From Escherichia coli (lineage in GTDB: Bacteria > Pseudomonadota > Gammaproteobacteria > Enterobacterales > Enterobacteriaceae): a stretch of DNA of 64,000 bases. Under the pieces are notes generated by a model. It was not told the origin of the DNA and made no database searches. It saw only the letters and a list, made by a program, of their open reading frames with translations. Of this stretch, positions 3,416 to 17,495 are shown piece by piece. The DNA is taken from the NCBI RefSeq assembly GCF_050320075.1, contig NZ_CP190018.1; one strand, given 5' to 3'. How positions within the stretch are numbered: position 1 is the stretch's first letter; each line of letters begins with the position of its first letter. Both the position numbers and the translations under genes were made by a program.

Positions 3416-4213
3416 TTAATAAAGTGAGTCGATATTGTCTTTGTTGACCAGTAATACCTTATGGAAACGGATAATTCGCTTATCCATATCTACGTCGGCC
3501 TTACCGAGATTCTCCATTTCTAATCCAGGTTTGATCTCTTCACCCTTCAGCAACGTGCTGGCGACGGCCGCGAGTGCGTAACCTGCAGAGGCCGGATCGT
3601 AAGTAATCCCTTCGGTGATATCACCACTTTTAATCAGTGATGCCGCCTGTGAAGGGATCATCATGCCATAGACTGCGACTTTATTTTTCGCCCGTTTCTC
3701 TTTCACTGCACGTCCCGCGCCAATCGGACCGTTTGAACCAAAGGAGACAACCGCTTTCAAGTCAGGATAGGTTTTCATCAGGTCCAGTGTGGTACGACGT
3801 GAGTCATCCACACTCTCGGCAACCGGCATGCGGCGGGTAACTTCATGCATATCCGGGTAATGCTCTTTCTGGTATTTCACCAGCAAGTCAGCCCATAAGT
3901 TATGCTGCGGCACGGTCAAACTACCCACGTAAATCACATAGCCGCCCTTGCCACCCATGCGTTTCGCCATATGCTCAACATATTCAGCGGCAAATTTTTC
4001 GTTATCAATGATTTCGATATCCCAGTTAGCACTTGGCTGACCGGGGGATTCGTTGGTCAGAACCACAATTCCGGCATCTCGCGCTTTTTTGAATACCGGT
4101 TCCAGCACGTTGGCATCGTTTGGCACAATTGTAATTGCATTAACCTTACGGGCGATTAAATCCTCAATGATTTTAACCTGTTGCGGAGCATCAGTACTTG
4201 AAGGCCCCACCTG
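3416..4213 (-). pseudogene. Periplasmic sugar-binding protein (LsrB/RbsB family), C-terminal fragment cut off by IS150
   Basis: The ORF runs right up to the IS150 left end. The translation continues the N-terminal fragment at 5657..5849 once IS150 and one copy of the CCTG duplication are removed (987 nt, 328 aa). The track start is a GTG created at the junction. Confidence 0.8.
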
Positions 4214-4260
4214 TGTACTGCACCCATTTTGTTGGACGATGAAATGGAATAGCCCCTAAT

Positions 4261-4782
4261 ATGTCAAAGCCAAAATACCCTTTTGAAAAGCGCCTTGAAG
4301 TCGTGAATCACTACTTCACAACTGATGATGGTTACAGGATCATCTCGGCACGTTTTGGTGTCCCCCGAACCCAGGTCAGGACATGGGTTGCCCTCTATGA
4401 AAAACATGGAGAAAAAGGTTTAATTCCCAAACCTAAAGGCGTTAGTGCTGATCCAGAGTTGCGTATTAAGGTCGTGAAAGCTGTGATCGAGCAGCACATG
4501 TCCCTTAATCAGGCTGCTGCTCACTTTATGCTTGCTGGTAGTGGTTCTGTAGCCAGGTGGCTGAAGGTCTATGAAGAGCGCGGAGAAGCTGGTTTACGCG
4601 CGCTCAAGATTGGCACCAAAAGAAACATTGCAATATCAGTTGATCCAGAAAAAGCGGCATCAGCATTGGAGCTGTCAAAAGACCGACGCATTGAGGATCT
4701 TGAAAGGCAAGTTCGATTTCTTGAAACGCGGCTTATGTATCTAAAAAAGCTGAAAGCCTTAGCTCATCCCACGAAAAAGTAA
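4261..4782 (+). CDS. insJ: IS150 OrfA (InsJ), HTH DNA-binding transposase subunit, 173 aa
   Basis: Protein MSKPKYPFEKRLEVVNHYFTTDDGYRIISARFGVPRTQVRTWV... is recognised as IS150 InsJ. The A AAA AAG frameshift heptamer lies at 4743-4749 near its 3' end. Confidence 0.9.
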   Translation: MSKPKYPFEKRLEVVNHYFTTDDGYRIISARFGVPRTQVRTWVALYEKHGEKGLIPKPKGVSADPELRIKVVKAVIEQHMSLNQAAAHFMLAGSGSVARWLKVYEERGEAGLRALKIGTKRNIAISVDPEKAASALELSKDRRIEDLERQVRFLETRLMYLKKLKALAHPTKK

Positions 4783-5630
4783 AAGTACTCAACGAGCTAA
4801 GGCAGTTTTATCCTCTTGATGAGCTTCTCAGGGCTGCGGAGATACCGCGCAGTACGTTTTATTACCATCTAAAGGCTCTCAGCAAGCCTGACAAGTATGC
4901 GGACGTTAAAAAGCGTATTGGTGAGATTTATCACGAGAATAGAGGCCGATACGGATACCGTAGGGTAACGCTGTCTCTTCATCGAGAAGGGAAACAGATT
5001 AACCATAAAGCTGTTCAGCGCCTGATGGGAACCCTCTCACTTAAAGCAGCGATTAAGGTCAAGCGATACCGCTCTTACAGAGGAGAGGTAGGGCAAACCG
5101 CCCCTAATGTTCTCCAAAGAGATTTCAAGGCTACGCGGCCAAACGAGAAGTGGGTTACCGATGTTACTGAATTTGTAGTCAATGGGCGCAAGCTGTATTT
5201 GTCTCCAGTAATAGATCTCTTCAACAACGAAGTTATTTCTTACAGCCTTTCGGAAAGACCAGTGATGAACATGGTTGAGAATATGCTCGATCAGGCATTC
5301 AAAAAGCTTAATCCTCACGAGCATCCTGTTCTGCACTCTGACCAGGGATGGCAGTATCGTATGAGAAGATATCAAAATATCCTTAAAGAACATGGTATTA
5401 AACAAAGCATGTCCAGAAAAGGCAATTGTCTGGATAATGCTGTGGTGGAGTGTTTCTTTGGAACCTTAAAGTCGGAGTGTTTTTATCTTGATGAGTTCAG
5501 TAATATAAGCGAACTGAAGGATGCTGTTACGGAATATATTGAATACTACAACAGCAGAAGAATTAGCCTGAAATTAAAAGGTCTGACTCCAATTGAATAT
5601 CGGAATCAGACCTATATGCCTCGTGTTTAA
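4743..5630 (+). CDS. insK: IS150 OrfB (InsK) integrase-core reading frame, made as an OrfAB fusion by -1 frameshift
   Basis: The -1 frame is open from the slippery site to 5630 and reads ...[32 protein letters not shown]...DVTEF...HSDQGWQY...LKSE (DDE motif). The track lists only the ATG-initiated part, 5025..5630. Confidence 0.85.
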
Positions 5631-5656
5631 CTGTCCAACTTTTTGGGGTCAGTACA

Positions 5657-5849
5657 CCTGTGAGGCATTAACACCAAAGGCTTTACCCGCCTCGACCACA
5701 CCTTCGCCCATGCGATTAAACCACGGCATACCATCGACTTTAGAGATATTCACCACGACTTTTTCCGCTGCCTGGAGCGGCGCAGAAATTAGCGCAGCGC
5801 CTAATAACAGCGAAGACACCATATTGATAACAAAACGTTTATTCATCAT
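5657..5849 (-). pseudogene. Periplasmic sugar-binding protein (LsrB/RbsB family), N-terminal fragment with signal peptide
   Basis: MMNKRFVINMVSSLLLGAALISAPLQAAEKVVVNISKVDGMPWFNRMGEGVVEAGKAFGVNASQVY: signal peptide followed by an LsrB-like N-terminal motif. It ends at the IS150 right end. Confidence 0.8.
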
Positions 5850-6099
5850 TTCAGCCTCATTGCAGGGTAGTCAGGAAGTGTTCGCCCAAATTAGCGCGCT
5901 GGAGAGAATAAGAATTTTCGAATATTTTTATGCAGAATAAACAGCCCTATTTCAGGCAGCTATTAAAAATTTGGTTATAAATATGGACAAAACGGGCAGT
6001 AACAATAAGTGTGACAATCATCACGTAAAAAACAGCAAAATAAACAAAATTAGCGATACTTTATGTTTGTGAGCTTATTTCGCGTAGAAAAATAGTTAT

Positions 6100-6510
6100 C
6101 TACACAACGTCAATAAGGGCATATTCTTCAAAGATAACGTCCATTTCTGGTGAATAGCATCCTTCTGTCTGGAAAAAACGACGGTGTTCATTACGCCAAT
6201 ATTCAAGACTGAGGTCACCTTCACCTTCCTTACGGGCAAGCTCTGCGGTGACATCAGAAAAGCGCAGTAAATGCAGGCCAATCACTCTGATAACACAGAC
6301 AGGCTCACCACGGCTATTTCCTACTATCTTATACTCACCAATCATCGGAAATGCGTTGTCTTCAATACATCCCGCCAGCGAACCACAGGAAGCTGTTTTA
6401 ACACCTGTCGCAATCAACGTTGCGAGGTGATCGGCCAACGCTGCTGAATCGCCAAAAGTACAAAAGGAAGCATGGGGATATTTTTGTGAGATTTTTTCTT
6501 TTATGGTCAT
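6100..6510 (-). CDS. ASCH-domain (PUA-like) protein, about 136 aa
   Basis: The ORF resembles small ASCH proteins such as YqfB (LIATGVKTASCGS ... GEPVCVIRVIG ... TAELARKEG). Start assumed at internal MTIKEKIS; the track start is 6543. Confidence 0.45.
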   Translation of the reverse strand: MTIKEKISQKYPHASFCTFGDSAALADHLATLIATGVKTASCGSLAGCIEDNAFPMIGEYKIVGNSRGEPVCVIRVIGLHLLRFSDVTAELARKEGEGDLSLEYWRNEHRRFFQTEGCYSPEMDVIFEEYALIDVV

Positions 6511-6807
6511 GAGAATATTTTCGCGATTACGGAAAAAAATCACATCTTAATTACTGTTGATAACCATCAGCAAGAGGATCATTGGTTTTTCTATGTTTAA
6601 TCTTTTTTATCCGAAGCCGGTCACATTTATGGCTTGATAAATACCTTTGTTAAAACTCACTTTTGTGTATTTCTCTCAAATAATCCCCTGGAAATTATGC
6701 CGGGAGATTATAAAGTTCAGGATCATTCATTAGCAAACCATTGCTGCCCCACTCCCTGGGGCTTTAAATCTCTTACGATTCACCATTGCAGGCGTTTCAA
6801 ATGCGTA

Positions 6808-8190
6808 TCAACCTGCCACACTCCCCCACACCAGTTGCCCTTTATGGAACGTCGCCGTTCTCGGCGAGATACGCGCCACCGCCTCGGCGGAACAGGAGGC
6901 GTCCACCAGCACAAAGCTGGCATCATCCTGCGCTTTGGGCCACACGCGCTCGCCTTTTTCGTTGAGCGGCAATACATCGCCAGTGGCTAAAAACAGCGAG
7001 CGGGAGAGGTTCTGTTCGTTAGGACGAATATAGAGCTGCGCGTACAGATTGGCTTTTTCCAGCATGTCGCCCAGGCCGTAAGGCGACCAGTGGTCGATAA
7101 CGCTGTCGGTGCCGGTCATCACTTTTACGCCTTTGTCGTGCAACTGTTTGAGCGGCATATGCAGCGTGCCAATCGGCACCGTCGAGGCGATAGAAATTTG
7201 CTGCGCCGCCATCCGGTGCGCCAGTTCATCTACCTGTTGCTCATTGAGCGTTGCCAGCGCAAAGGCGTGGCTGATGGTCAGCTTGCCCTTCAGTTGCGGC
7301 GTTTTCTCCACCGTTTCAACCATATAATTGATGGCTGCCACGCCTGCCGGAGTGGTTTCGTGCAGGTGAATATCAACGCCTTTGTCGTAGTCCAGCGCAA
7401 TCTGGAACATGGTGTCGAGGGATTTTTCCATCGCGCCATCAACACTGGTCGGGTCCAGCCCGCCGACGTAATGCGCCCCCGCCTGCATCGCTTCGCGCAT
7501 TAAGGGTTCTGATTTCGACAGCAGCAAACCGTGCTGCGGGAAGGCGACAATTTCACACTCGAAGCCCGCCTGACGTCGCGCCAGAACCGCCTGCAAATTT
7601 TGCAGATTTTTCAGGCCGGAAACCGGTTCGATATTGCAGTGGCTGCGGGAAATGGTAGTGCCTTTCGACTGCAATAAATCAATCAGTTTTTCCGCCCTTT
7701 CCTGAGTGTACGGTTGCAACTCCGGCAGCATTTTCTGCTCGAGTTTGATCATGTCCTGGATGGTGGTGCATGCCGGACGATTGAGCGAGCGCCACGGCCC
7801 GCCGTAGAAGGTTTTGTCGAGATGAATATGCATGTCGCGGGTGGTGGGCAGCATCAGCTTACCGCCAGCGTCATAGTGCGGCAGCGTGGCGTCCGGATGC
7901 TGATTGTTCTCGCGCAGTGCAACAATTTTGCCGTTCTGAATTTCCACAGTCTGGCGCGCCGTGCGGGTCTGCACCGCCACGCCATTTTCGTAGTCAAAAC
8001 CGGTTTCCAGCAACACGTTGTCGAGATAGTAGTGCGGGTCAGTGATTTTCATGGTGTTATTCGCGTCGCAGTGGGTTGTGCCAGAGACTGCCGCATGGGC
8101 GAGCGGCACAGAGGTACCAAACAGCGCGGCGGCGGTGACCATCTTACCGCTCTGGCTCAGAAACTCACGGCGGCTATTGCTTTCTTTCAT
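6808..8190 (-). CDS. yahJ: Metal-dependent amidohydrolase/deaminase with a twin-arginine signal peptide, 460 aa
   Basis: N-terminus MKESNSRREFLSQSGKMVTAAALFGTSVPLAHA has an SRRxFL Tat motif and an AxA cleavage site. The body carries amidohydrolase-like HxH and metal-ligand motifs. Length and context match YahJ. Confidence 0.75.
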   Translation of the reverse strand: MKESNSRREFLSQSGKMVTAAALFGTSVPLAHAAVSGTTHCDANNTMKITDPHYYLDNVLLETGFDYENGVAVQTRTARQTVEIQNGKIVALRENNQHPDATLPHYDAGGKLMLPTTRDMHIHLDKTFYGGPWRSLNRPACTTIQDMIKLEQKMLPELQPYTQERAEKLIDLLQSKGTTISRSHCNIEPVSGLKNLQNLQAVLARRQAGFECEIVAFPQHGLLLSKSEPLMREAMQAGAHYVGGLDPTSVDGAMEKSLDTMFQIALDYDKGVDIHLHETTPAGVAAINYMVETVEKTPQLKGKLTISHAFALATLNEQQVDELAHRMAAQQISIASTVPIGTLHMPLKQLHDKGVKVMTGTDSVIDHWSPYGLGDMLEKANLYAQLYIRPNEQNLSRSLFLATGDVLPLNEKGERVWPKAQDDASFVLVDASCSAEAVARISPRTATFHKGQLVWGSVAG

Positions 8191-8199
8191 CTTACGTCC

Positions 8200-9150
8200 T
8201 TACGTTTTAATAATATGGGTGCCCGTTTCACCGCGCAGCGCCGCAAGCAGGCATTCCGGCGTGGTGATAATCACTTCTTTGCCGCCCTGTTCCAGGAACG
8301 TCAGGCTGGCGATGATTTTTGGCAACATGCTGCCAGGCGGAAAATGCCCTTCCTGCATATAGCGGGTCATGGTGGCAATATCCACCCGATCGAGCGCCTG
8401 CTGCTGCGGTTTGCCAAAGTGAATACACACTTTTTCGACGCCAGTGGTGATCACCAGAATGTCGGCGTGAATTTCACGGGCCAATAGCGCGGTAGAGAGA
8501 TCTTTGTCGATAACCGCGTCCACGCTTTGGTAATCCCCCGCTTCACTGCACACCACCGGAATTCCGCCACCGCCCGCGCCAATCACCACAAAGCCTTGTT
8601 GGATCAGCGCCTTAATGGCAGGTGCTTCTACAATACGTTGCGGTTCCGGCGAGGCGACCACGCGGCGATAGCCCCGTCCGGCATCTTCAACAAAACGCCA
8701 GTCAGGGTTTGCCTTTTGTAATTCGTCACGCTGGCTGTCACTAAAGAATGCGCCGATGGGCTTGGTGGGATGAGCAAAACCCGGATCGTTTTTATCCACT
8801 TCCACCTGAGTCACCACGGTGACGGCTTTTTTCTCGCCATGACGCGCCAGTCGGTTGTTCAGCGCCTGTTGGATCAAGTAGCCAATGCCGCCTTGCGTAT
8901 CCGCCACACAGTTCGCCAGCGGCGTTAAGGGCAGCCCTTCGCGCTCGTGGGCAATCTCCGCGCGGCGTAAATCCAAACCGACCTGCGGTCCGTTGCCGTG
9001 GGTCAGCACAATGTCGTAATCGGAAGCCAGCATTTCCAGCACCGTATCGGCGACGGCTTTCACCGCCTCCGCCTGATGCTCAATCGACTGGCTGGCGTTA
9101 TCTTTGATAATGCTGTTGCCACCAATGGCAACGACCACAAGTTCTTTCAT
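8200..9150 (-). CDS. yahI: Carbamate kinase, 316 aa
   Basis: MKELVVVAIGGNSII... and the amino-acid-kinase fold are typical of carbamate kinase. Start taken at the internal ATG, giving 316 aa; the track ORF extends to 9267. Confidence 0.8.
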   Translation of the reverse strand: MKELVVVAIGGNSIIKDNASQSIEHQAEAVKAVADTVLEMLASDYDIVLTHGNGPQVGLDLRRAEIAHEREGLPLTPLANCVADTQGGIGYLIQQALNNRLARHGEKKAVTVVTQVEVDKNDPGFAHPTKPIGAFFSDSQRDELQKANPDWRFVEDAGRGYRRVVASPEPQRIVEAPAIKALIQQGFVVIGAGGGGIPVVCSEAGDYQSVDAVIDKDLSTALLAREIHADILVITTGVEKVCIHFGKPQQQALDRVDIATMTRYMQEGHFPPGSMLPKIIASLTFLEQGGKEVIITTPECLLAALRGETGTHIIKT

Positions 9151-9245
9151 ATTGTTATGTCCGCTACAGAGGGTGATGGGGTTATGAGAGTGAGGTTGCC
9201 CCTCTCCCCAGAAGGAAGAAGGGATCGTAAGGTGCAGTTGGAGGG

Positions 9246-10664
9246 TCAGACGCCGTAACGTTCGCACCAGCCAAGAATGGCTTTCTCGAAGCAGGCGAAT
9301 GGTGGATGCACAATGCCCGCGCCAATCATGCCAACGCCCGCATCTTTATGGGCAATGGCGGTGTTGATCACCGGCAGAATGCCGCTACTGCCCACGCGGG
9401 TGATGTCGATTGCCGACGGCACGCCCATAAAACCGAGCAGCGGAATGGTGACGTTGGGGTTTTCACCGAGAGTGATTTCGCGCATCTGACGGGAGAAATC
9501 GATAGCCTCTTCCACCGTGCCGCCCACCAGCGCGACGATCGCGGGCGCGGTAGCCATAGCAAATCCACCAATGCCGTAGGTTTCGGTGATGGCGCTGTCG
9601 CCAATATCCAGCCCCGAATCTTCCGGCTTATAACCGGCAAACATCGGGCCGATCACCTGCTGCGCCGGACCGGTAAACCATTGCCCCGGTAATCCGCTGA
9701 CCCGCAGGCCGAACTCGACGCCGTTACGCGCCATCGTGGTGACCACGGTGCTGTATTCGATGCCGTGCGCCGCATCCATCGCCGCTTTACACATCGCCAT
9801 CCACGTCGGGCCGGAGAAGTAGTCGCTGCTGGCGACAAACTCAAACACTTCGCGCTGTTGCTCGACGGAATAACCTGCCTGAATAATCCCCGGCGTCAGC
9901 GCCTGAATCAGCAGCGTCGTCCCGGCGTTATTACGGTTATGGCATTCATCGCCCATATGCAGCGCCTGCGCCAGCATTAAGCGCAGATCGATTTCGCCGA
10001 TAATTTTCATCGCGTCGCGCAGCATTGGCCCCTGCACATCGCGCATCCAGTTGAGGCGGTCAATCACGCTCTGGTCGTTAGCGCCCATACGCAAAATCTT
10101 CGCCATCTGCTCGCTCATATTGGTGTAAGCGATGTTGCCGTAGGTTTTGTTTTTTACGATGTGCATAAACATCGAGGCCGAGGTAACACCTGCCATCGAT
10201 CCCACACAGTCGTGTTCATGGCACGGCGAGAAGGTGATCTCCCCGGAGGCCGCCAAGTCAGCCGCCTCGTCGAGATCTTTCGCCAGCCCTTCGAACACCA
10301 GCGCCCCGGTGACCGCGCCTTTCATTGCGCCGCACATTTTTTCCCAGGTCACTGGCGGCCCGGCGTGAAGAATGGTTTTCGGCGTCATTCCCGGCACCAC
10401 GTTAATCGCCTGATCAAAACCAATCAGCACCGGATGCGACTGGATAATGCGCTCCAGCGCCTGCTGGTTAGCGGCGGCGATTTTGTCTGCCAGCGGCGAA
10501 TCGGCAATGTTATCCAGCGCCTGCACCACCTGCATATTGCCCTGCCCCGGCGGCGTCCAGTCGAGTTGGGTCACTTCTACATGCTGCTTTTTCAAATCAT
10601 CGCTAAACATGGCGATGCCGACGTTAATAACGTTCAACGGTTGGCTAAACAGTGACTGGCTCAT
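9246..10664 (-). CDS. yahG: DUF1116-family protein (YlbE-like), 472 aa
   Basis: Length and position match yahG. The stop overlaps the yahF start by 1 nt, suggesting translational coupling. Confidence 0.7.
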   Translation of the reverse strand: MSQSLFSQPLNVINVGIAMFSDDLKKQHVEVTQLDWTPPGQGNMQVVQALDNIADSPLADKIAAANQQALERIIQSHPVLIGFDQAINVVPGMTPKTILHAGPPVTWEKMCGAMKGAVTGALVFEGLAKDLDEAADLAASGEITFSPCHEHDCVGSMAGVTSASMFMHIVKNKTYGNIAYTNMSEQMAKILRMGANDQSVIDRLNWMRDVQGPMLRDAMKIIGEIDLRLMLAQALHMGDECHNRNNAGTTLLIQALTPGIIQAGYSVEQQREVFEFVASSDYFSGPTWMAMCKAAMDAAHGIEYSTVVTTMARNGVEFGLRVSGLPGQWFTGPAQQVIGPMFAGYKPEDSGLDIGDSAITETYGIGGFAMATAPAIVALVGGTVEEAIDFSRQMREITLGENPNVTIPLLGFMGVPSAIDITRVGSSGILPVINTAIAHKDAGVGMIGAGIVHPPFACFEKAILGWCERYGV

Positions 10665-12211
10665 CAGGCTTCCTCCCCTTTGCAGATAAATTCACGCGCC
10701 AGCAATCCGGTATTGGTGCTGCTGCTTGCCAGAATTACCCCAGCATCAAGCAGCATCTGGCTTTGTTGTTCTAACGATGGCGTATCGAGATCGGTACCCA
10801 GCACATAGGCGAGAATGATCAACTCGCGCCCTTCGGCAGCGGCGATCGCTTTCGCCTCTTTGATCGCCTCGATGGTGGAACCGACCGGATCTTCATGCGA
10901 TCCAAACCCGAGCACAAAATCCATCACGATCACCGCCACTTCTGGATCGTGCGCCTCTTCGATCAAGCGGCTGATACGGTTGGTGGGGTCAATCATTGGA
11001 TGCGGCTTGCCGTTGGTGAAGTCGTCATCGCCAAAGTCGAGGAAGGTGTGTTTGATGCTGCGGTTGATATCTTGCAGGCGGAATTCAGGATCGGGCTGAA
11101 TGTTGCTGTAGACATCGCCATGTTTTTCCATCACCGCGAACATGGTTTCGTCACACAGCGTACCGCCGCAGAACAGGCCACGAATGTATTTCTGTTGCGG
11201 CTTCAGGCGAGCGCGCACGTCAGCAATCAATGGCTGGTTCAGGGTATGCAGATCGAGATGTTCCTGTTTCACGCCGGAGAGCATCACCGCTTTCAGCGCC
11301 GCTTCTTTGCTGCCGCGGGCAAACTTTAGCCCCTGCTCATCCACTGGCGTTTCGCCACGACCGAGGAAGCAGACCACCACCGGCTTGCGGCAGGCGCGTG
11401 CGCGTTCCAGCACTTTGCGGGCCACCGCAGGCGCAGGCGGTTTGGAGATAAGCACAATAATTTCAGTTTGCGGATCGTTTTCCAGCATCCCGATGGCGTC
11501 GAGCATCATCAGGCCGCCGATTTTCTCGCTCAGGTCGCGCCCGCCGGTGCCGATCAGTTGCGAAACGCCGCCGCCAAATTCATGGATACGGACGCTCAGC
11601 TCCTGGCTACCGGTGCCGGATGCGCCAACAATGCCGATGTTGCCGCGACGCACGGCGTTACCAAAGCAGAGCGCCGCGCCGTTGATAATCGCCGTACCGC
11701 AGTCTGGCCCCATCATCAGCAGCCCTTTTTCGTGGGCCAACTGTTTGAGCGCCAGTTCATCTTCAACTGAGACGTTATCGGAAAACAGCATCACGTTAAG
11801 ATCGTTTTGCAGCGCCTGACGCGCTTCGCGAGCGGCAAACAGACCGTTGACCGAAATCACCGCCAGGTTACTTTCCGGGATATGCTTTTTGGCGCTGGCA
11901 ATAGTGGCGTAACGCGCCTCGTGCGGGCCGCTTTGCGCTTTGCTGTTGAACAGTTCTTCAATCTCCACCAGCAACTGCTCGTTGTCTGCGCCCGATTTAC
12001 CATTGATGACAATCATCAGGTCACCGTTTTTCGCCTGCTCCAGCTCCGGCGTCAGCAGCCCTAAATTCTTCAGCACGCCTTTGTTCATTTCGGTCGCCAT
12101 CGCCACAAATGCCTGCTCGACGCCGTCAAGTTTATTTGCACGCGTGGAGATAGACATCAGCGAGACAGAATCAAAATAGGTATTCGGTTTAATGACTATT
12201 TTAACTGACAT
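10664..12211 (-). CDS. yahF: FdrA-like protein with a CoA-ligase/succinyl-CoA-synthetase-alpha-like fold, 515 aa
   Basis: Rossmann/CoA-binding style motifs (GIVGASGTGSQ, GxGG). Length and context match YahF, the FdrA paralogue. Confidence 0.7.
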   Translation of the reverse strand: MSVKIVIKPNTYFDSVSLMSISTRANKLDGVEQAFVAMATEMNKGVLKNLGLLTPELEQAKNGDLMIVINGKSGADNEQLLVEIEELFNSKAQSGPHEARYATIASAKKHIPESNLAVISVNGLFAAREARQALQNDLNVMLFSDNVSVEDELALKQLAHEKGLLMMGPDCGTAIINGAALCFGNAVRRGNIGIVGASGTGSQELSVRIHEFGGGVSQLIGTGGRDLSEKIGGLMMLDAIGMLENDPQTEIIVLISKPPAPAVARKVLERARACRKPVVVCFLGRGETPVDEQGLKFARGSKEAALKAVMLSGVKQEHLDLHTLNQPLIADVRARLKPQQKYIRGLFCGGTLCDETMFAVMEKHGDVYSNIQPDPEFRLQDINRSIKHTFLDFGDDDFTNGKPHPMIDPTNRISRLIEEAHDPEVAVIVMDFVLGFGSHEDPVGSTIEAIKEAKAIAAAEGRELIILAYVLGTDLDTPSLEQQSQMLLDAGVILASSSTNTGLLAREFICKGEEA

Positions 12212-13064
12212 AATTCCCTCCGTAGGTTTGGCTCAGCGCACAACCATCGGCCATGCCATACAGCATGTCGCAGCCGGAACTGGAGCCAATATGTTTAATT
12301 TTTTCTATTGCCTGAGTTGCGTTCCCAGGGATGTCATAAATAATGTTATGAATAAAACGATGAATATCTTCCCGGCAGCGTTGTTGTAATGCGGCTTCCA
12401 GCGTTATGGCACTTAATAACGTGGTATTATTTCTGCCGCGTTGCAGACCGAGATAAAATTCCTCTTTGTATTTTTCCGCCGGATGCCCAGGAATAAATAA
12501 AATAAGCGCCAGACCTGTTAAATAATCGTCGGCTGATGGCGTAAGGCCAATCCCTAAGCCCATCATACTGGCGACCGCTGAGGCGATATTTTGTTTATCG
12601 TTTACGGCCTGAATAACTGCCCGTCGTTTAATATGTAATTCTTTATTTAACGCCTGATAAAACGGATTATCGCCGCAATAATTAAACAGGGTTTCATTTT
12701 CCCCCAGGTGCTGATGAATAATGTCATGCCACTGTTGCCAGGCGATAAGGTGAAAATTCACAGCGGTCATTTGCAAGGTTGGGGACAGCCAACGCCGACA
12801 ACGACTCATCTCTATATGAAGATGTTGACCAACCGTAATGCCTTGATCGTCAAACTGAACCTTATCACCATGCCGGAACAGACCATCAAAGTGAGTGAGT
12901 GCCAACCGACAACTGTTTGGCGCATTGTCGTACTCTTCACAAAGCAGCGTCAGCAACTGCTGGCGGGCCGGAAGTGCGATATTTACCGCTCTGGCAAAGA
13001 CCTGTTCAACCTGTCCTTGCCCCCGCTGCGCCAGAAAATCAGCATCCGCAGTTAGCGCCCACAC
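12201..13064 (-). CDS. yahE: DUF2877-family protein (YlbF-like), 287 aa
   Basis: ORF overlaps the yahF start by 11 nt. Length and context match yahE. Confidence 0.65.
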   Translation of the reverse strand: MWALTADADFLAQRGQGQVEQVFARAVNIALPARQQLLTLLCEEYDNAPNSCRLALTHFDGLFRHGDKVQFDDQGITVGQHLHIEMSRCRRWLSPTLQMTAVNFHLIAWQQWHDIIHQHLGENETLFNYCGDNPFYQALNKELHIKRRAVIQAVNDKQNIASAVASMMGLGIGLTPSADDYLTGLALILFIPGHPAEKYKEEFYLGLQRGRNNTTLLSAITLEAALQQRCREDIHRFIHNIIYDIPGNATQAIEKIKHIGSSSGCDMLYGMADGCALSQTYGGNYVS

Positions 13065-13103
13065 ACACCGTCTTTCTGGTGTGTTGATAGCAAGCCTCCC
13101 GGT

Positions 13104-13709
13104 TTATGCACCTGCGGCCATCAGTAACTGCGCAATCTCTTCAAAGCCTCGTTCCCGCGCCAGTTCCAGCGGCGTTTTGCCATATTTATCCGTCATGTGC
13201 GGGCTGGCACCGTGTTCCAGCAATAACTGGACAATCGCCTGCTGTTTAATCCCGCCATCATTAAGCACAATTGCTTCCAGTAGCGGCGTCCAGCCAACAT
13301 GGTTGGTCTGGTTAACGTTAATCTCCGTATGCGCCAAAAGCTCTTTTACAATACTTAAATGGCCTTTTTCACAGGCAGGCGTCAGGCCGACACCGCCAAA
13401 ACGGGTGACGCAATTAAGATCGGGTTTAGCCGGTAAAATAATCCGTAACAGGGTTAAATCGCCGGTCAGGCAGCTAATTAAAAAAGGATTTGAACATATT
13501 TGATCTTGCTTATTAATATCTGCTCCGGCATCAATTAATGCCTGAACGCAAGCATATTGCTGATATAAACTTGCCAGCGTAATTGCCGTTTTCCCCTGAC
13601 GATCGCAGGTATTAATATCGACACCCAGCGCAAGGCAGGTTTTTACTTTATCGATATCACCCTGTTGCGCAGCCAATAAATAGTCGGCAGGTAGATTTTT
13701 TATAGTCAT
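13104..13709 (-). CDS. yahD: Ankyrin-repeat protein, 201 aa
   Basis: Repeated ankyrin-like units (G.TALH/LA...G....V..LL..GAD.N) are visible in the translation. Length matches YahD. Confidence 0.75.
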   Translation of the reverse strand: MTIKNLPADYLLAAQQGDIDKVKTCLALGVDINTCDRQGKTAITLASLYQQYACVQALIDAGADINKQDQICSNPFLISCLTGDLTLLRIILPAKPDLNCVTRFGGVGLTPACEKGHLSIVKELLAHTEINVNQTNHVGWTPLLEAIVLNDGGIKQQAIVQLLLEHGASPHMTDKYGKTPLELARERGFEEIAQLLMAAGA

Positions 13710-13966
13710 TCACATTCCCCTGGTTTTTGTGGCTGTTTTCGATGAATTGAGAATAGCAACGATAATCTGATAAAAGAACCCGCTTAAATTTAATTCGCCG
13801 TATTTCGCCTTTTTGTTGAATGATGTTCAACAATCTTTTCGCAGTGTGCGGTAGTGCAATATTTGTTTCTTTGACCCGATACCCTTTCACTCAATCAGGT
13901 TTTATTTCTCTATAGTCTGCACATGTAAGAGTAGCTTTCGTCCATGTCTAACCAGAGGGGAACAAG

Positions 13967-14464
13967 ATGAACGGACTCACGGCAACGGGTGTCACCGTCG
14001 GTATTTGTGCAGGGCTTTGGCAGTTAGTGTCTTCACATGTTGGGCTCTCTCAGGGATGGGAATTATTAGGAACCATTGGCTTCGTCGCCTTTTGCAGTTT
14101 TTATGCCGCAGGCGGCGGTAAAACGGGGTTTATCAGAAGCCTGGCGGTTAATTATTCCGGGATGGTGTGGGCGTTTTTCGCCGCGCTGGCTGCCGGTTGG
14201 CTGGCCTCGGTGAGTGGATTGTCCACGTTCTGGGCGAGCGTGATTATGACTGTACCCTTCTCGGCGGTAGTGGTCTGGCAAGGACGTTTCGGTTTATTGT
14301 CTTTTATTCCCGGAGGCTTTCTCGGCATGACGCTATTTTTTGCCAGCGGGATGAACTGGACGGTGACATTACTGGGTTTTCTGGCGGGTAACTGCGTGGG
14401 GATAATTTCAGAATATGGCGGACAAAAATTAAGCGAAGCGACGACTAAACGCGACGGGTATTAA
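13967..14464 (+). CDS. yahC: Inner-membrane protein, 165 aa
   Basis: Highly hydrophobic ORF with several predicted helices, transcribed divergently from yahD. Length matches YahC. Confidence 0.65.
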   Translation: MNGLTATGVTVGICAGLWQLVSSHVGLSQGWELLGTIGFVAFCSFYAAGGGKTGFIRSLAVNYSGMVWAFFAALAAGWLASVSGLSTFWASVIMTVPFSAVVVWQGRFGLLSFIPGGFLGMTLFFASGMNWTVTLLGFLAGNCVGIISEYGGQKLSEATTKRDGY

Positions 14465-14555
14465 AAGTTATTCAAAAATGATTATCTATCTTTAACCGAT
14501 ACCTCTACAGTCATGGCTGGAGAAATTCATAGTAGATAATGGCGGGAATGGTTTA

Positions 14556-15488
14556 ATGAACTCAATTTTTACCGAAGAGAATCTGTTGGCATTTACTACC
14601 GCTGCGCGTTTTGGCAGCTTCAGTAAAGCCGCAGAAGAGTTGGGTTTAACCACTTCCGCCATTAGCTACACCATCAAGCGAATGGAAACAGGGCTGGATG
14701 TGGTGCTGTTCACTCGCAGTACCCGAAGCATTGAGTTAACGGAGTCCGGGCGTTATTTTTTCCGCAAAGCTACCGACCTGCTGAATGATTTTCACGCCAT
14801 CAAACGCAGCATCGATACTATTTCGCAGGGTATAGAAGCACGGGTGCGCATTTGTATTAACCAACTGCTTTATACGCCCAAACACACCGCACGCTTATTA
14901 CAGGTACTGAAAAAGCAGTTTCCTACCTGCCAGATTACCGTCACCACCGAAGTGTATAACGGCGTCTGGGATGCGATTATTAATAATCAGGCGAATATCG
15001 CTATCGGCGCACCCGACACGCTGCTGGACGGTGGCGGCATTGATTACACGGAGATTGGCGCGATTCGCTGGGCTTTTGCCATCGCCCCGGATCACCCGTT
15101 AGCCTTTGTGCCGGAGCCGATCGCCGAAAGCCAACTGCGTCTCTACCCTAATATCATGGTGGAGGACACCGCACATACGATTAATAAAAAAGTGGGCTGG
15201 TTGCTGCATGGGCAGGAGTCAATTCTGGTGCCAGATTTCAACACCAAATGTCAGTGCCAGATTTTAGGTGAAGGAATTGGTTTTTTGCCGGATTACATGG
15301 TCCGTGAGGCGATGGCGCAATCCCTGCTGGTTACCCGACAAATCCATAATCCGCGCCAGGATTCGCGCATGTTACTGGCGACCCAGCACTCTGCCACCGG
15401 TCAGGTGACGCAGTGGATTAAAAAACAATTTTCGCCAAATGGCATATTAACGGGGATCTATCAGGATTTACTGCATCGGGAGAATTAA
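14556..15488 (+). CDS. yahB: LysR-family transcriptional regulator, 310 aa
   Basis: N-terminal LysR HTH (FTTAARFGSFSKAAEELGLTTSAISYTIKRME) plus a substrate-binding domain. Confidence 0.8.
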   Translation: MNSIFTEENLLAFTTAARFGSFSKAAEELGLTTSAISYTIKRMETGLDVVLFTRSTRSIELTESGRYFFRKATDLLNDFHAIKRSIDTISQGIEARVRICINQLLYTPKHTARLLQVLKKQFPTCQITVTTEVYNGVWDAIINNQANIAIGAPDTLLDGGGIDYTEIGAIRWAFAIAPDHPLAFVPEPIAESQLRLYPNIMVEDTAHTINKKVGWLLHGQESILVPDFNTKCQCQILGEGIGFLPDYMVREAMAQSLLVTRQIHNPRQDSRMLLATQHSATGQVTQWIKKQFSPNGILTGIYQDLLHREN

Positions 15489-15529
15489 TCGCTGCCAACT
15501 TCCCGATGCGCTGTGAATAGCGGTTTACA

Positions 15530-16618
15530 TCAACCACCTGCTTTCATTACCCATTCAGAGATAAATTTATTACCCGGTACTGGCGGAGAGTACAAATAGC
15601 CCTGCAAAAAGTGAACGCCTTTGCCGATCATTAAATCCGCCTGCTCCTGGGTTTCTACCCCTTCCGCCACGATACTCAGACCAGGCTTACGCGCCAGTTC
15701 GACAATATTGTCCACAATATGACCGGATATTTCGTCCACGCTCGCCATTTGCACAAATGACTTATCGATCTTAATAAAATCGACCGGGAACGCCTGCAAG
15801 TAACGATAGGTCGCATAACCCGTACCAAAGTCATCCAGCGCAAAGGTAATGTTGTGCTGATGAAGGCTGTCAAATATCGCTCTGGCTTCTGGCGTTACCG
15901 GAATAGGGTTACGTTCCGTTAGCTCGAGAACCAGTTTGATTTTATCGTTACCTAATTTCTTAACCAGGTTCAGGCATTCTTTTTCAAATCCCGCAGCCAA
16001 AAAACAACCCGCCGAGACGTTGATGCCAATATGGAAATTGTCCGGCAGCAAATGTTTTACCGGCATCAGAATATCCGCAGTCTGTTTCATCAACTGGCGA
16101 GTCATTATGACGATAAGACCAGATGACTCCGCCAGAGGAATAAACTGATCCGGTGGGATAATTCCCGTTTGTGGATGTTCCCAGCGGACAAGCACCTCAC
16201 AGCCCGTCAGTACCCCAGTCTGCGCGCAGAAAACCGGTTGGATCCACGGTTTAAATTCATGGTTTTCCAACGCCAGACTGATGGCTTCAGGCGTGACGAT
16301 ATGGTGATAGTGATTATCATTAATATATTTGTGACTATTATTACCCGTGGCGGATATGATCTCCGGATTGTACTGAAAGAAAATATCCCGCCAGAAAGTA
16401 ATATCGCTCTGAATCCCCAGTTTCTCAAAGAGCTGTTTCTTTTGATGTGAAATGGTCTTTGCACTGCGATTTCTGTACTGTGATATTTCTGTTACAGACA
16501 TTCCCTGCATCAGCAGCTTGAGTAGCAGTCGTTCTTTCTCGGATACGCTACCAGGCAATGACAAATGAACCGTTGTACCGAACTCTTGCAGAAAAACACG
16601 AAAATCACATGAATTCAT
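15530..16618 (-). CDS. pdeL: c-di-GMP phosphodiesterase with N-terminal LuxR-type HTH and C-terminal EAL domain, 362 aa
   Basis: LuxR-type HTH (LLKLLMQGMSVTEISQYRNRSAKTISHQKKQLFEKLG) followed by EAL-domain motifs (ELTER, DDFGTGY). Length matches YahA/PdeL. Confidence 0.85.
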   Translation of the reverse strand: MNSCDFRVFLQEFGTTVHLSLPGSVSEKERLLLKLLMQGMSVTEISQYRNRSAKTISHQKKQLFEKLGIQSDITFWRDIFFQYNPEIISATGNNSHKYINDNHYHHIVTPEAISLALENHEFKPWIQPVFCAQTGVLTGCEVLVRWEHPQTGIIPPDQFIPLAESSGLIVIMTRQLMKQTADILMPVKHLLPDNFHIGINVSAGCFLAAGFEKECLNLVKKLGNDKIKLVLELTERNPIPVTPEARAIFDSLHQHNITFALDDFGTGYATYRYLQAFPVDFIKIDKSFVQMASVDEISGHIVDNIVELARKPGLSIVAEGVETQEQADLMIGKGVHFLQGYLYSPPVPGNKFISEWVMKAGG

Positions 16619-17495
16619 GAACACACCTTTTATCTTTTATCGCTGTTCAGTATGAGTGATTACCTGTGGATTCCTGAGCACACATAAGGGGTAACCATAA
16701 ACATCAGCGATGCCATACGCATAACATCCCACATCACTATCAAAAAGATTATCTTTACCTCTGATGCTCGCTCAAAAACAGTTACGCTAAATACCTTAAA
16801 AAGGTAATCACAAGTCAAACTCAGGAGATAATCACGCAAGAATGCAATATTAAAATTCAGATACTCATTTTTGGTAATAAAGAAGTAGTTGGACTATTTC
16901 AATATTTATAATTTCCCACTACGTATTGACGCCCATTCATGAGTAAAGGCGCATTATATGAATTTAACAATCCAGATCAACTGAAAATACCTCAACCTCA
17001 TAAACACATAGCGTCAACATTCAATGACATAATGAGTAAAGATGTTGGTTATGCATACACGTCATTACTCTATGCCTATCCCTTAACAACCTGCTTTTTA
17101 AGGCTGAATCCATTCAGCAATAGATAGCCAACATTATAACAATGACAATAAAAACAATATTTAAAACAATCAATAAAATATCAGACACAGACAATTAAAC
17201 CTTAAACAACAAACAGTTACATTGATTTTAGTTGATTTGCGCTACGCGTTTCCCATGAATAAAGCGTCATTTCAAATTAGCACCAATATTTACATTAAAT
17301 AAGACTAAGCTTATTGAACATTCACAACAGTCCAAGCGTAGGTTTTGGGCTTCAATAGTTCTTTTCTTTTTTATTATCTGTTGCCTGGCAATCATCAATC
17401 GATACTAAGGGCTTAACTGTACACAGATATAACGTATCAAGAGGTAAGAGAAACCGCGCCATATGCAGACATGGCGCGGTTTTATGCAATAACAA

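Follow-up and report, generated by a model that had tools for sequence, protein, structure and literature searches.

The yahD-yahJ cluster of Escherichia coli as a probable carbamoyl-phosphate-generating catabolic operon with an AllFGH-type enzyme

What do the yah genes of Escherichia coli act on, and to what end? The genes yahD, yahE, yahF, yahG, yahI and yahJ occupy 6.9 kb (6808-13709) of a window of 64,000 nucleotides from contig NZ_CP190018.1 (assembly GCF_050320075.1), all six on the minus strand and at the positions recorded in a preliminary description that had been made from the sequence alone. That description had called the cluster cryptic and had compared it to a catabolic module that generates carbamoyl phosphate, by analogy with a gene combination in the allantoin region. 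On the basis of homology and gene context we consider it fairly probable that yahDEFG-yahI-yahJ, together with the regulator gene yahB, form an operon for substrate-level phosphorylation with the logic of the arginine deiminase pathway, acting on a nucleobase- or ureide-like substrate other than allantoin-derived oxalurate. Given that a sister copy of an oxalurate-splitting enzyme is combined with a carbamate kinase, the set would probably convert a nitrogen-rich, nucleobase-like compound to ammonia and ATP.

Relation to the AllFGH-AllK enzymes

The four central proteins have clear homologues in the allantoin region of E. coli K-12. YahF is 38% identical to FdrA/AllF (E 2e-101), YahG 45% to YlbE/AllG (E 2e-119), YahE 25% to YlbF/AllH (E 2e-10) and YahI 38% to YbcF/AllK (E 2e-57). 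An absence of homology between the two sets, which the preliminary description had named as a refutation, does not apply. The pairing made in the preliminary description was right in each case, as was its statement that the combination of DUF2877, FdrA, DUF1116 and carbamate kinase recurs in the allantoin region. The domains it had named, including the amidohydrolase, agree with the family models, DUF2877 and DUF1116 being named AllH (PF11392) and AllG (PF06545) in Pfam. It had also mentioned a proposal that the fdrA-ylbE-ylbF products constitute an oxamate carbamoyltransferase, and this has been established by experiment in 2024: purified AllF-AllG-AllH is an oxamic transcarbamylase, which interconverts oxalurate plus phosphate and carbamoyl phosphate plus oxamate, and the formation of oxamate from allantoin requires each of allF, allG and allH (Kim and Kim 2024, PMC11326118). 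YbcF/AllK was characterised as a catabolic carbamate kinase by the same authors (PMC9843812). The recent product names of the Prokaryotic Genome Annotation Pipeline (PGAP), 'oxamate carbamoyltransferase subunit AllH family protein' for YahE and 'YlbE family protein' for YahG, indicate that the paralogy of yah and all is already known to the databases.

In both systems the three protein families and a carbamate kinase are encoded within one operon, and both have in common the invariant motifs of the AllH family and, in YahF and AllF, the F-subunit motif G(K/R)PHPMIDP. The differences are found in the order of the genes (allF-allG-allH-allK versus yahE, which is of the H type, followed by yahF-yahG-yahI), in the C-terminal tail of AllF of ~45 amino acids (aa), which in the yah system is the N-terminus of YahG, and in the H subunit, which in its yah form is dispensable in many lineages. 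In addition, the yah set includes an ankyrin protein, an amidohydrolase with predicted export by twin-arginine translocation (Tat), a permease slot and a LysR-type regulator.

Strain K-12 carries an intact yahEFG and the deletion of allFGH in this strain leaves no oxamate formation from allantoin (PMC11326118); the yah set does not replace AllFGH in vivo. When the deletion strain was complemented with allGH alone or allFG alone, 16% and 7% of the wild-type amount of oxamate was formed, respectively (PMC11326118, Table 3). The chromosomal YahF or YahE could have supplied the missing subunit in these strains, something that was not considered by the authors. By its location the yah cluster does not belong to the allantoin (all) regulon of AllR/AllS: it is not situated beside allB, allC, allD or allE, as the all genes lie ~200 kb away in K-12, and none of the about 100 yah-type loci that we examined adjoins allantoin genes. 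This lack of allantoin-gene neighbours and the K-12 deletion phenotype together make it unlikely that the yah substrate is oxalurate derived from allantoin. A scan of one genome per species yielded 475 relatives of YahG, the best 80 of which (Enterobacterales and Aeromonas) are 86-99% identical to it. The full-length YahG-type proteins of Brevibacillus, Paenibacillus, Psychrobacillus, Sporosarcina and Janthinobacterium are 76-79% identical and the structural-genomics entry 3CLQ about 75%, whereas the AllG of the same E. coli genome is only 45% identical to YahG. Judged by sequence, the yah genes form an old orthogroup of their own and are not a recent duplicate.

Subunits and enzymes of the cluster

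The genes for the three subunits are closely joined. yahE (12201-13064, minus strand; 287 aa, GTG start) and yahF (10664-12211, minus strand; 515 aa) overlap by 11 nt at 12201-12211 (ATGTCAGTTAA, with a GGAGGG Shine-Dalgarno sequence, as read base by base), and yahF and yahG (9246-10664, minus strand; 472 aa) by 1 nt at 10664 (TGATG), both as had been reported before. The gaps between the other genes measure 39 nt (yahD/yahE), 95 nt (yahG/yahI) and 9 nt (yahI/yahJ). In Zophobihabitans entericus a single open reading frame (ORF) of 817 aa (locus L065, 7536-9989) represents a fusion of YahE and YahF, whereas the overlap between the two genes is out of frame in other species.

YahF is an AllF/FdrA-type subunit, which scores 490 bits with NF004760 ('FdrA'; cut-off 433), carries the domains HMA_AllF_N, CoA_binding and Ligase_CoA (Pfam domains on the orthologue) and matches the FdrA crystal structure 3DMY at E 5e-82. 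Matches with the alpha chains of succinyl-CoA synthetase are weaker (E 1e-7 to 3e-17). Like these and ATP-citrate lyase, YahF has a CoA-binding Rossmann fold and a Ligase_CoA fold (residues ~100-315), but an HMA-like domain at the N-terminus and a second C-terminal domain are additional in YahF, and it lacks both a GHAGA sequence at the aligned position and a beta (ATP-grasp) partner. Aligned to 2YV2, YahF has a gap and non-homologous residues at the place of the GHAGA phosphohistidine loop, and a gene for an ATP-grasp beta subunit was present in none of the clusters examined. The more far-reaching statement that YahF lacks any catalytic histidine was dropped, because the PHPM histidine is conserved between YahF and AllF; only the canonical loop is absent.

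YahG is an AllG-type subunit and the best-conserved protein of the cluster, with PF06545 being present on all of its homologues. Its residues from about 8 to 52 match the final 45 positions of the FdrA model (NCBIfam; BLASTP agrees) and the subunit boundaries differ from those of AllF and AllG, as is visible in the lengths of YahF (515 vs 555 aa) and YahG (472 vs 419 aa). The alignments indicate that the boundary between the F and G genes has shifted between the yah and all systems, which makes sense only if YahF and YahG work as one unit. YahE, an AllH-type accessory subunit with PF11392, keeps the motifs that are invariant in its family and is the fastest-evolving protein, with an identity of 35-96% over the 80 loci as compared to 86-99% for YahG. 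In 25 of the 78 loci with both yahD and yahF it could not be detected, among them those of Enterobacter, where the gap between yahD and yahF is only ~57 nt, Leclercia, Lelliottia, Silvania, Huaxiibacter, Aeromonas and one Serratia; the clusters of Shimwellia and Jeotgalibaca are also without YahE. Given these missing cases, and the 7% of oxamate formation that allFG alone gives in the all system, YahF and YahG are the core of the enzyme and YahE is accessory. The three-protein set of the preliminary description is present as far as the families are concerned, but it is an incomplete picture, as YahE is often absent and the ankyrin protein YahD is a conserved partner.

The product of yahI (8200-9150, minus strand; 316 aa) is a carbamate kinase family protein. 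Although the mechanically called ORF reaches to 9267, the annotated ATG is at 9150. YahI scores 642.9 bits with the carbamate kinase model NF009007 (cut-off 266) and can be aligned over its full length with the solved kinases 1E19 and 1B7B; in both it has the motifs GGN, HGNGPQVG, KPIG, GGGGIPV, IDKD and GSMxPK in identical form. Going by the E. faecalis structures, these motifs are involved in the binding of the nucleotide and carbamoyl phosphate. The family membership that had been proposed earlier is corroborated by these sequence signatures; a published assay of YahI was not found in our literature search.

The last gene, yahJ (6808-8190, minus strand; 460 aa), encodes a metal-dependent amidohydrolase with a Tat signal (SRREFL). 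It scores 713 bits with NF005312 (cut-off 447) and, among solved structures, 6NBO, AtzC (2QT3/4CQB) and cytosine deaminase come closest to it. YahJ aligns with CodA and AtzC over the whole catalytic domain and keeps the metal ligands (HxH, His and Asp), the catalytic His and Glu and the glutamine of AFPQ; more explicitly, H121, H123, H275, D362, H308, E278 and Q219 align with the metal-binding and catalytic residues of CodA. It is, however, only 23% identical to CodA, carries a Tat signal and falls in a subfamily of its own (NF005312). The cytosine-deaminase equivalog models gave 66-101 bits, against cut-offs of 403-483, and the substrate-binding Asp314 of CodA aligns with Ser363. By its sequence YahJ is a member of the CodA/AtzC clade, yet not an orthologue of cytosine deaminase. 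Its N-terminus, MKESNSRREFLSQSGKMVTAAALFGTSVPLAHA (SRREFLS...PLAHA-A), has the RR motif, the hydrophobic stretch and the AxA cleavage site of a twin-arginine signal, which predicts export, and the identical peptide is listed among the Tat substrates of E. coli (PMC7549933). The RR motif is kept in the orthologues of Providencia, Aeromonas and Serratia and absent from the Firmicute homologues. In E. coli YahJ is probably a periplasmic deaminase.

Conserved context, regulation and distribution

The presence of genes was scored by ORF calling and BLASTP in the 80 loci of Enterobacterales and Aeromonas. The comparison of these sequences points to an ancestral architecture in which a divergent LysR-type gene, yahB, faces the series yahD-yahE-yahF-yahG-Mem516-yahI-yahJ. 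The ankyrin-repeat gene yahD (13104-13709, minus strand; 201 aa, with Ank matches) is the first gene of the operon; it is present in each of the 78 loci with the yahD-yahF segment and it has no counterpart in the all operon. At the other end, yahJ follows yahI in 75 of the 76 related loci. Mem516, a protein of 516 aa with ~11 transmembrane (TM) segments, is encoded between yahG and yahI in 58 out of 76 loci (e.g. L005, 13922-15472, and L025-L086) and is absent from Escherichia, Kluyvera, Klebsiella, Raoultella, Citrobacter amalonaticus and Pseudocitrobacter. In our window its place is taken by an empty slot, the spacer of 95 nt between yahG and yahI (9151-9245, minus strand); in K-12 the slot measures 421 nt and contains repetitive extragenic palindromic (REP) elements ('yahH').

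Searches with the Mem516 sequence gave no matches in Pfam, NCBIfam or the PDB, while a few distant members of its family, which comprises 2224 representatives at 50% clustering, touch PF00860 or PF16983. The AlphaFold2 model (mean confidence score pLDDT 92.7) shows a UraA fold with a 7+7-TM inverted repeat and short strands at 85-87 and 303-305 (TM3 and TM10). Foldseek connected the model to SVCT1, UraA, UapA, AZG2, prestin and SLC26/BicA, all with probability 1.0. On the basis of this predicted structure Mem516 is assigned as a UraA-fold transporter of the NAT/NCS2-AzgA-SulP type. Its relatives with this fold transport nucleobases, ascorbate or small oxyanions.

The gene yahC (13967-14464, plus strand), which lies between yahB and yahD and is divergent from the latter, encodes a small DUF1097 membrane protein (PF06496 on the orthologue). 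It occurs in 17 of 75 loci, and these are exactly the ones without Mem516: we found no locus with both genes and none with neither. This exclusivity was considered as proof of functional replacement and rejected as such. Among all loci, those with yahC also stand nearest to the E. coli cluster (with YahG 94-99% identical), and the pattern is thus most simply explained by one historical replacement event, not by repeated evidence.

The regulator gene yahB (14556-15488, plus strand) encodes a LysR-type protein and is located beside the cluster in 75 of the 80 loci, with an identity of 74-99%. YahB is listed as an uncharacterised LysR-type regulator (PMC9068703, PMC8464067). By cross-species comparison, two elements were identified upstream of yahD. 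The one nearest to the gene, TTGCTATTCT (13750-13759, minus strand), is a conserved extended -10-like element, and the TTGCTATNCT element occurs at most 90 nt from the yahD start in 73 of the 80 loci. The other, TTGAACATCATTCAA (13816-13830, minus strand), is a LysR-type T-N11-A dyad and the candidate operator for YahB. In 65 of the 80 loci the sequence TTGAA-N5-TTCAA, with at most one mismatch, was found at a distance of 112-197 nt upstream from the start codon of yahD, as compared to 1.5 expected from shuffling, with half-sites that are conserved and spacers that vary. The conservation of dyad and -10-like element supports the notion that yahD-yahJ form an operon under the control of YahB. 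Generic promoter and terminator scans of 6400-14700 gave fewer matches than shuffled controls and did not flag the -10-like element. Searches for riboswitches and other RNAs with Rfam (at the gathering score for seven clusters from five genera, and at E<=1 for positions 5500-17000 of the window) recovered only two tRNAs.

The same partnership was recovered in other phyla. In Brevibacillus (L087) a PucR gene precedes Ank - AllH - AllF - AllG - NCS1 permease - carbamate kinase - CDA-fold deaminase (150 aa), and in Sporosarcina (L089) the order behind PucR is AllH - AllF - AllG - Ank/TPR - NCS1 - CDA-fold deaminase (150 aa). The NCS1 permeases of these two score highest with the allantoin-permease model, at 434-444 bits and thus under its cut-off of 620 bits. 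Trichococcus (L093) has PucR, two amidohydrolases of the YahJ subfamily, Ank/TPR - AllH - AllF - AllG, a 10-TM protein of 394 aa and a triple RidA fusion; the two amidohydrolases lack signal peptides and score 484 and 460 bits with NF005312, and the multi-TM protein of 394 aa also follows the AllG-type gene in locus L092. The cluster of Jeotgalibaca (L097) consists of PucR, a Mem516 homologue (57% identical), Ank/TPR - AllF - AllG, and that of Peribacillus (L098) of PucR, AllH - AllF - AllG - Ank/TPR - carbamate kinase; at a distance of 3.4 kb downstream the latter also has a homologue of YahJ (41% identical). Finally, Janthinobacterium (L088) and Shimwellia (L096) have Ank - (AllH) - AllF - AllG - Mem516 - carbamate kinase with a LysR-type gene and no deaminase. 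Across the phyla, the AllF/AllG core is accompanied by the ankyrin protein and a membrane carrier, encoded directly after or before the core genes and belonging to three unrelated families, and usually by a carbamate kinase and a deaminase, either a CodA/AtzC amidohydrolase or a protein with the CDA fold. The CodA and CDA types are the classic pair of non-homologous nucleobase deaminases. In Trichococcus collinsii (L093, 12971-14239) the protein encoded just after the cluster has 422 aa and three RidA (enamine/imine deaminase) domains, a neighbour that hints at an enamine or imine as product of the pathway. A third set of FdrA, DUF1116 and carbamate kinase is present in some E. coli, in region GR29 of avian pathogenic strain BEN2908, where it adjoins a CodB-like NCS1 permease and a RutB-like hydrolase of the isochorismatase family (PMC12928451). 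Region GR29 is another combination of a hydrolase, an AllFG-type enzyme, a carbamate kinase and a nucleobase carrier.

Within E. coli, the yahD-yahJ region was recovered at a coverage of at least 80% and an identity of 95-100% in 4998 of 5426 complete genomes (~92%), and the 6.9 kb of our window are 100% identical to several chromosomes. Pairwise ratios of nonsynonymous to synonymous substitution (dN/dS) against five other genera were 0.012-0.04 for yahG, 0.05-0.09 for yahF, yahI and yahJ, about 0.07-0.14 for yahD and 0.14-0.27 for yahE; between E. coli and E. whittamii every gene fell in the range 0.012-0.17. These low values indicate that the genes are maintained by selection and are not decaying. 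The term 'cryptic' of the preliminary description is thus not to be taken as a sign of decay, since every one of the genes is under purifying selection.

Several individual genomes deserve mention. In E. coli and Klebsiella, some 70 conjugative plasmids, from sources that include chicken/poultry and swine, carry yahB and yahD-E-F-G-Mem516-yahI between insertion sequence (IS) elements, lack yahJ and have a nucleotide identity of ~82%. Two that were inspected are IncF plasmids (AP026455.1, L090 6979-15412; NZ_MG825378.1, L091 3719-12158). Many strains thus hold a second set that is equipped with the transporter. The clusters of Pseudocitrobacter (L009 and L011, 5175-13994) are mosaic, in that YahF, YahG, YahI and YahJ are 95-99% identical to those of E. 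coli versus 55-74% for YahC, YahD and YahE, which suggests a recent recombination breakpoint near the yahE/yahF junction. In E. albertii NBRC 107761 (L010, 5626-7169) the yahF ORF that was detected covers only the C-terminal ~284 codons, so the gene may be disrupted in that strain.

The cluster of our window is flanked on one side by yahB, yahC, pdeL and betT, and on the other by an ASCH gene, IS150 and an ATP-binding cassette (ABC) transporter. Downstream of yahJ this strain has the ASCH-domain gene (6100-6543) and the ABC transporter, whereas K-12 has yahK-yahL at this place. IS150 (ORFs 4261-4782 and 5025-5630) interrupts the gene for the substrate-binding protein of an autoinducer-2/sugar ABC transporter (3416-5940), and an IS1 element lies between pdeL and betT (~17132-17829). 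In strain Ec-U3 (L095), whose sequence over the yahD-yahJ region is identical, the annotation gives betI with an internal stop and paoB and paoC as partial genes.

Proposed pathway, alternatives and meaning

Gene anatomy, homology, conservation, context and purifying selection were observed here, and from these we infer the catalytic activity, its direction, the composition of the complex, the order of the steps and the class of the substrate. YahF and YahG, with the accessory YahE and probably YahD, would constitute a second AllFGH-type enzyme, which would phosphorolytically remove the terminal carbamoyl group of an N-acyl-urea or ureido compound and so yield carbamoyl phosphate. YahI would then convert carbamoyl phosphate and ADP to ATP, NH3 and CO2. 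The Tat-exported YahJ, as a CodA/AtzC-type aminohydrolase, may deaminate an amino- or imino-substituted nucleobase-like precursor in the periplasm, with release of NH3, and its product would be, or would lead to, the compound that is used by the cytoplasmic YahFG enzyme. In most species the permease with the UraA fold (Mem516) that is encoded between yahG and yahI would import that compound; its gene has been lost in E. coli. The folds of the transporters, the types of deaminase and the PucR regulators together suggest a substrate that resembles a nucleobase or ureide. The generation of carbamoyl phosphate that had been proposed in the preliminary description is supported by homology and context, and the same lines of evidence suggest the catabolic, ATP-yielding direction.

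A wider proposal, which we make with considerable reserve, is that the yah-type cluster represents a widespread energy-yielding pathway of Enterobacterales, Aeromonas, Betaproteobacteria and Bacilli, in which a four-part enzyme phosphorolyses a nucleobase-derived acyl-urea or a deiminated guanidino compound. Equally tentatively, an AllF-type and an AllG-type protein might make up the core of this enzyme, with an ankyrin scaffold and, optionally, an AllH-type subunit as the other parts. Both the feeding deaminase (with an amidohydrolase or a CDA fold) and the permease (with the UraA fold, of the NCS1 type or of the family of 394 aa) may conceivably have been exchanged in a non-orthologous manner. 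Candidate substrates include products of 5-azacytosine or of ammelide-like triazines, guanylurea or biuret, cyclic acylguanidines of the creatinine type and purine oxidation products of the parabanate type.

Several points weigh against the pathway as proposed. The score of YahI with the arcC equivalog TIGR00746 (345.1) is just under the cut-off (358.25). Its best structural match is 1E19 of Pyrococcus, which has been described as a carbamate-kinase-like carbamoyl-phosphate synthetase that works biosynthetically. An obvious ring-opening enzyme was not found in the conserved core, which leaves the step from a heterocycle to a terminal ureide unexplained, and E. coli is without the dedicated transporter Mem516. 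No deaminase is encoded in the clusters of Janthinobacterium, Shimwellia and Pantoea or in the plasmid copies, so that YahJ could be a feeder that is not always needed. Moreover, YahJ is predicted to be periplasmic in Proteobacteria and the equivalent deaminases of Firmicutes are cytoplasmic; consequently the data do not fix the order of the steps (deamination before import, import before deamination, or deamination of the product). The mechanism of AllFGH itself is not established, and for oxamate it has a KM of 36.9 mM, which is very high (PMC11326118). The sole biochemical or genetic datum for the yah genes is the weak competition defect of a yahJ deletion mutant of extraintestinal pathogenic E. 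coli in mice (competitive index 0.70, p 0.02; PMC7549933).

The proposed substrate has to be weighed against oxalurate itself. YahEFG might be a second oxamate carbamoyltransferase, an isozyme of AllFGH that serves under other conditions and receives periplasmic oxalurate made by YahJ from parabanate or an oxaluric amide or imine. The three protein families and the coupling to a carbamate kinase are indeed the same, and the partial rescue by allGH or allFG could reflect cross-complementation by the chromosomal YahF or YahE. Furthermore, Klebsiella aerogenes, K. spallanzanii and Raoultella have yah genes and K. pneumoniae lacks allFGHK (PMC11326118), so that yah could be the sole such enzyme in some relatives. 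We nevertheless consider an oxalurate isozyme unlikely, given the abolished oxamate formation in the K-12 deletion strain, the identity of the yah proteins to the All proteins (25-45%) as compared to yah-type proteins of other phyla (75-79%), and the transporter, ankyrin protein, deaminase and regulator that the yah set has for itself, away from allantoin genes in all loci examined. Slightly less probable still is that the E. coli cluster is a functionless remnant, in which the loss of the permease left genes that are intact and unused. The absence of Mem516 from Escherichia and its nearest cluster relatives would fit a remnant, as would the REP elements in the empty K-12 slot, the position in a dense block of uncharacterised y-genes (2024 y-ome survey), the shortened yahF of E. 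albertii and the plasmid copies with Mem516 that many E. coli acquire. The retention in ~92% of complete genomes, the low dN/dS of every gene and the small fitness cost of the yahJ deletion in mice argue against it, as does the fact that the lineage without Mem516 always has yahC instead.

Two other explanations concern the chemistry, and we regard both as very improbable. The module could be biosynthetic, with YahI making carbamoyl phosphate and YahEFG carbamoylating an amide or amine acceptor, for instance in the detoxification or modification of a nucleobase analogue. AllFGH was assayed in the carbamoylating direction (PMC11326118), and the similarity of YahI to 1E19 points the same way. 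However, permeases, deaminases, the RidA fusion and PucR/LysR regulators make up a catabolic context, downstream biosynthetic genes are lacking, and both characterised E. coli counterparts run catabolically (PMC11326118, PMC9843812, bioRxiv 10.1101/2025.04.24.650524). Even more doubtful is a role of YahF as acyl-CoA synthetase or NDP-forming CoA ligase, with the cluster activating or cleaving an acyl-CoA and YahI being an unrelated neighbour. This would account for the CoA_binding and Ligase_CoA domains, for the matches with succinyl-CoA synthetase alpha and for the PGAP product name of YahF, which still reads 'acyl-CoA synthetase FdrA'. It is at odds with the activity of AllF, the closest characterised relative, in a CoA-independent carbamoyltransferase assay (PMC11326118), with the unmatched GHAGA loop and missing ATP-grasp beta subunit, and with the linkage of carbamate kinase to the cluster in most lineages.

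The catabolic reading of the yah cluster has parallels in known pathways. In the arginine and agmatine deiminase pathways (ArcA-ArcB-ArcC-ArcD) a deiminase releases NH3, a transcarbamoylase forms carbamoyl phosphate, a carbamate kinase produces ATP and a transporter completes the set. The functional logic of the yah cluster would be the same, but among the first three enzymes only the carbamate kinase is homologous, the substrate would be neither arginine nor agmatine, and the yah deaminase has an amidohydrolase or CDA fold and is predicted to be periplasmic in Proteobacteria. The parallel with the deiminase pathways was also drawn for YgeW-YqeA of E. coli, a carbamoyltransferase and a carbamate kinase that yield ATP from a diureide derived from urate (2025; bioRxiv 10.1101/2025.04.24.650524). 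This system for 2,8-dioxopurine and anaerobic urate resembles the proposed yah pathway in the phosphorolytic carbamoyltransferase, the paralogous carbamate kinase, the gain of ATP from a purine-derived ureide and the preceding steps by members of the amidohydrolase superfamily (SsnA and HyuA). It differs in that YgeW is a single-chain transcarbamylase with the fold of ornithine and aspartate transcarbamylase (OTC/ATC), whereas YahEFG is of the unrelated AllFGH type; the only family common to both gene sets is that of the carbamate kinases.

The statement of the preliminary description that substrate and role are undefined still holds. A literature search for functional studies of yahD-yahJ, DUF1116/DUF2877, YahJ, yahB or yahI/yqeA yielded none, in the y-ome survey of 2024 yahC, E, G, H, I and J still figure as a cluster that is uncharacterised, and the yah genes are not mentioned in PMC11326118 and PMC9843812. 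A yahF mutation in gemcitabine-evolved E. coli was considered by its authors to be a side effect of a nupC rearrangement. What is new here is an AllFGH-type module with a different composition and probably a different substrate, which would come as no surprise to specialists familiar with the 2024 paper.

Of the three carbamate-kinase paralogues of E. coli, two have been connected to a pathway, AllK to oxalurate (2022-2024) and YqeA to anaerobic urate (2025), so that the YahI module is the remaining orphan. Knowledge of its substrate would fill a gap that has long existed in the E. coli y-ome, would define the range of specificity of the newly discovered AllFGH enzyme class, and might reveal a source of nitrogen and ATP that is relevant in the gut. 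The comparative data provide handles for this, namely the core subunits, the species with a complete, permease-bearing system and the site of the probable regulator. If the wider, more tentative proposal were true, the yah-type cluster would represent a fourth kind of substrate-level phosphorylation based on carbamoyl phosphate, and would give a conserved bacterial ankyrin protein its first metabolic role.

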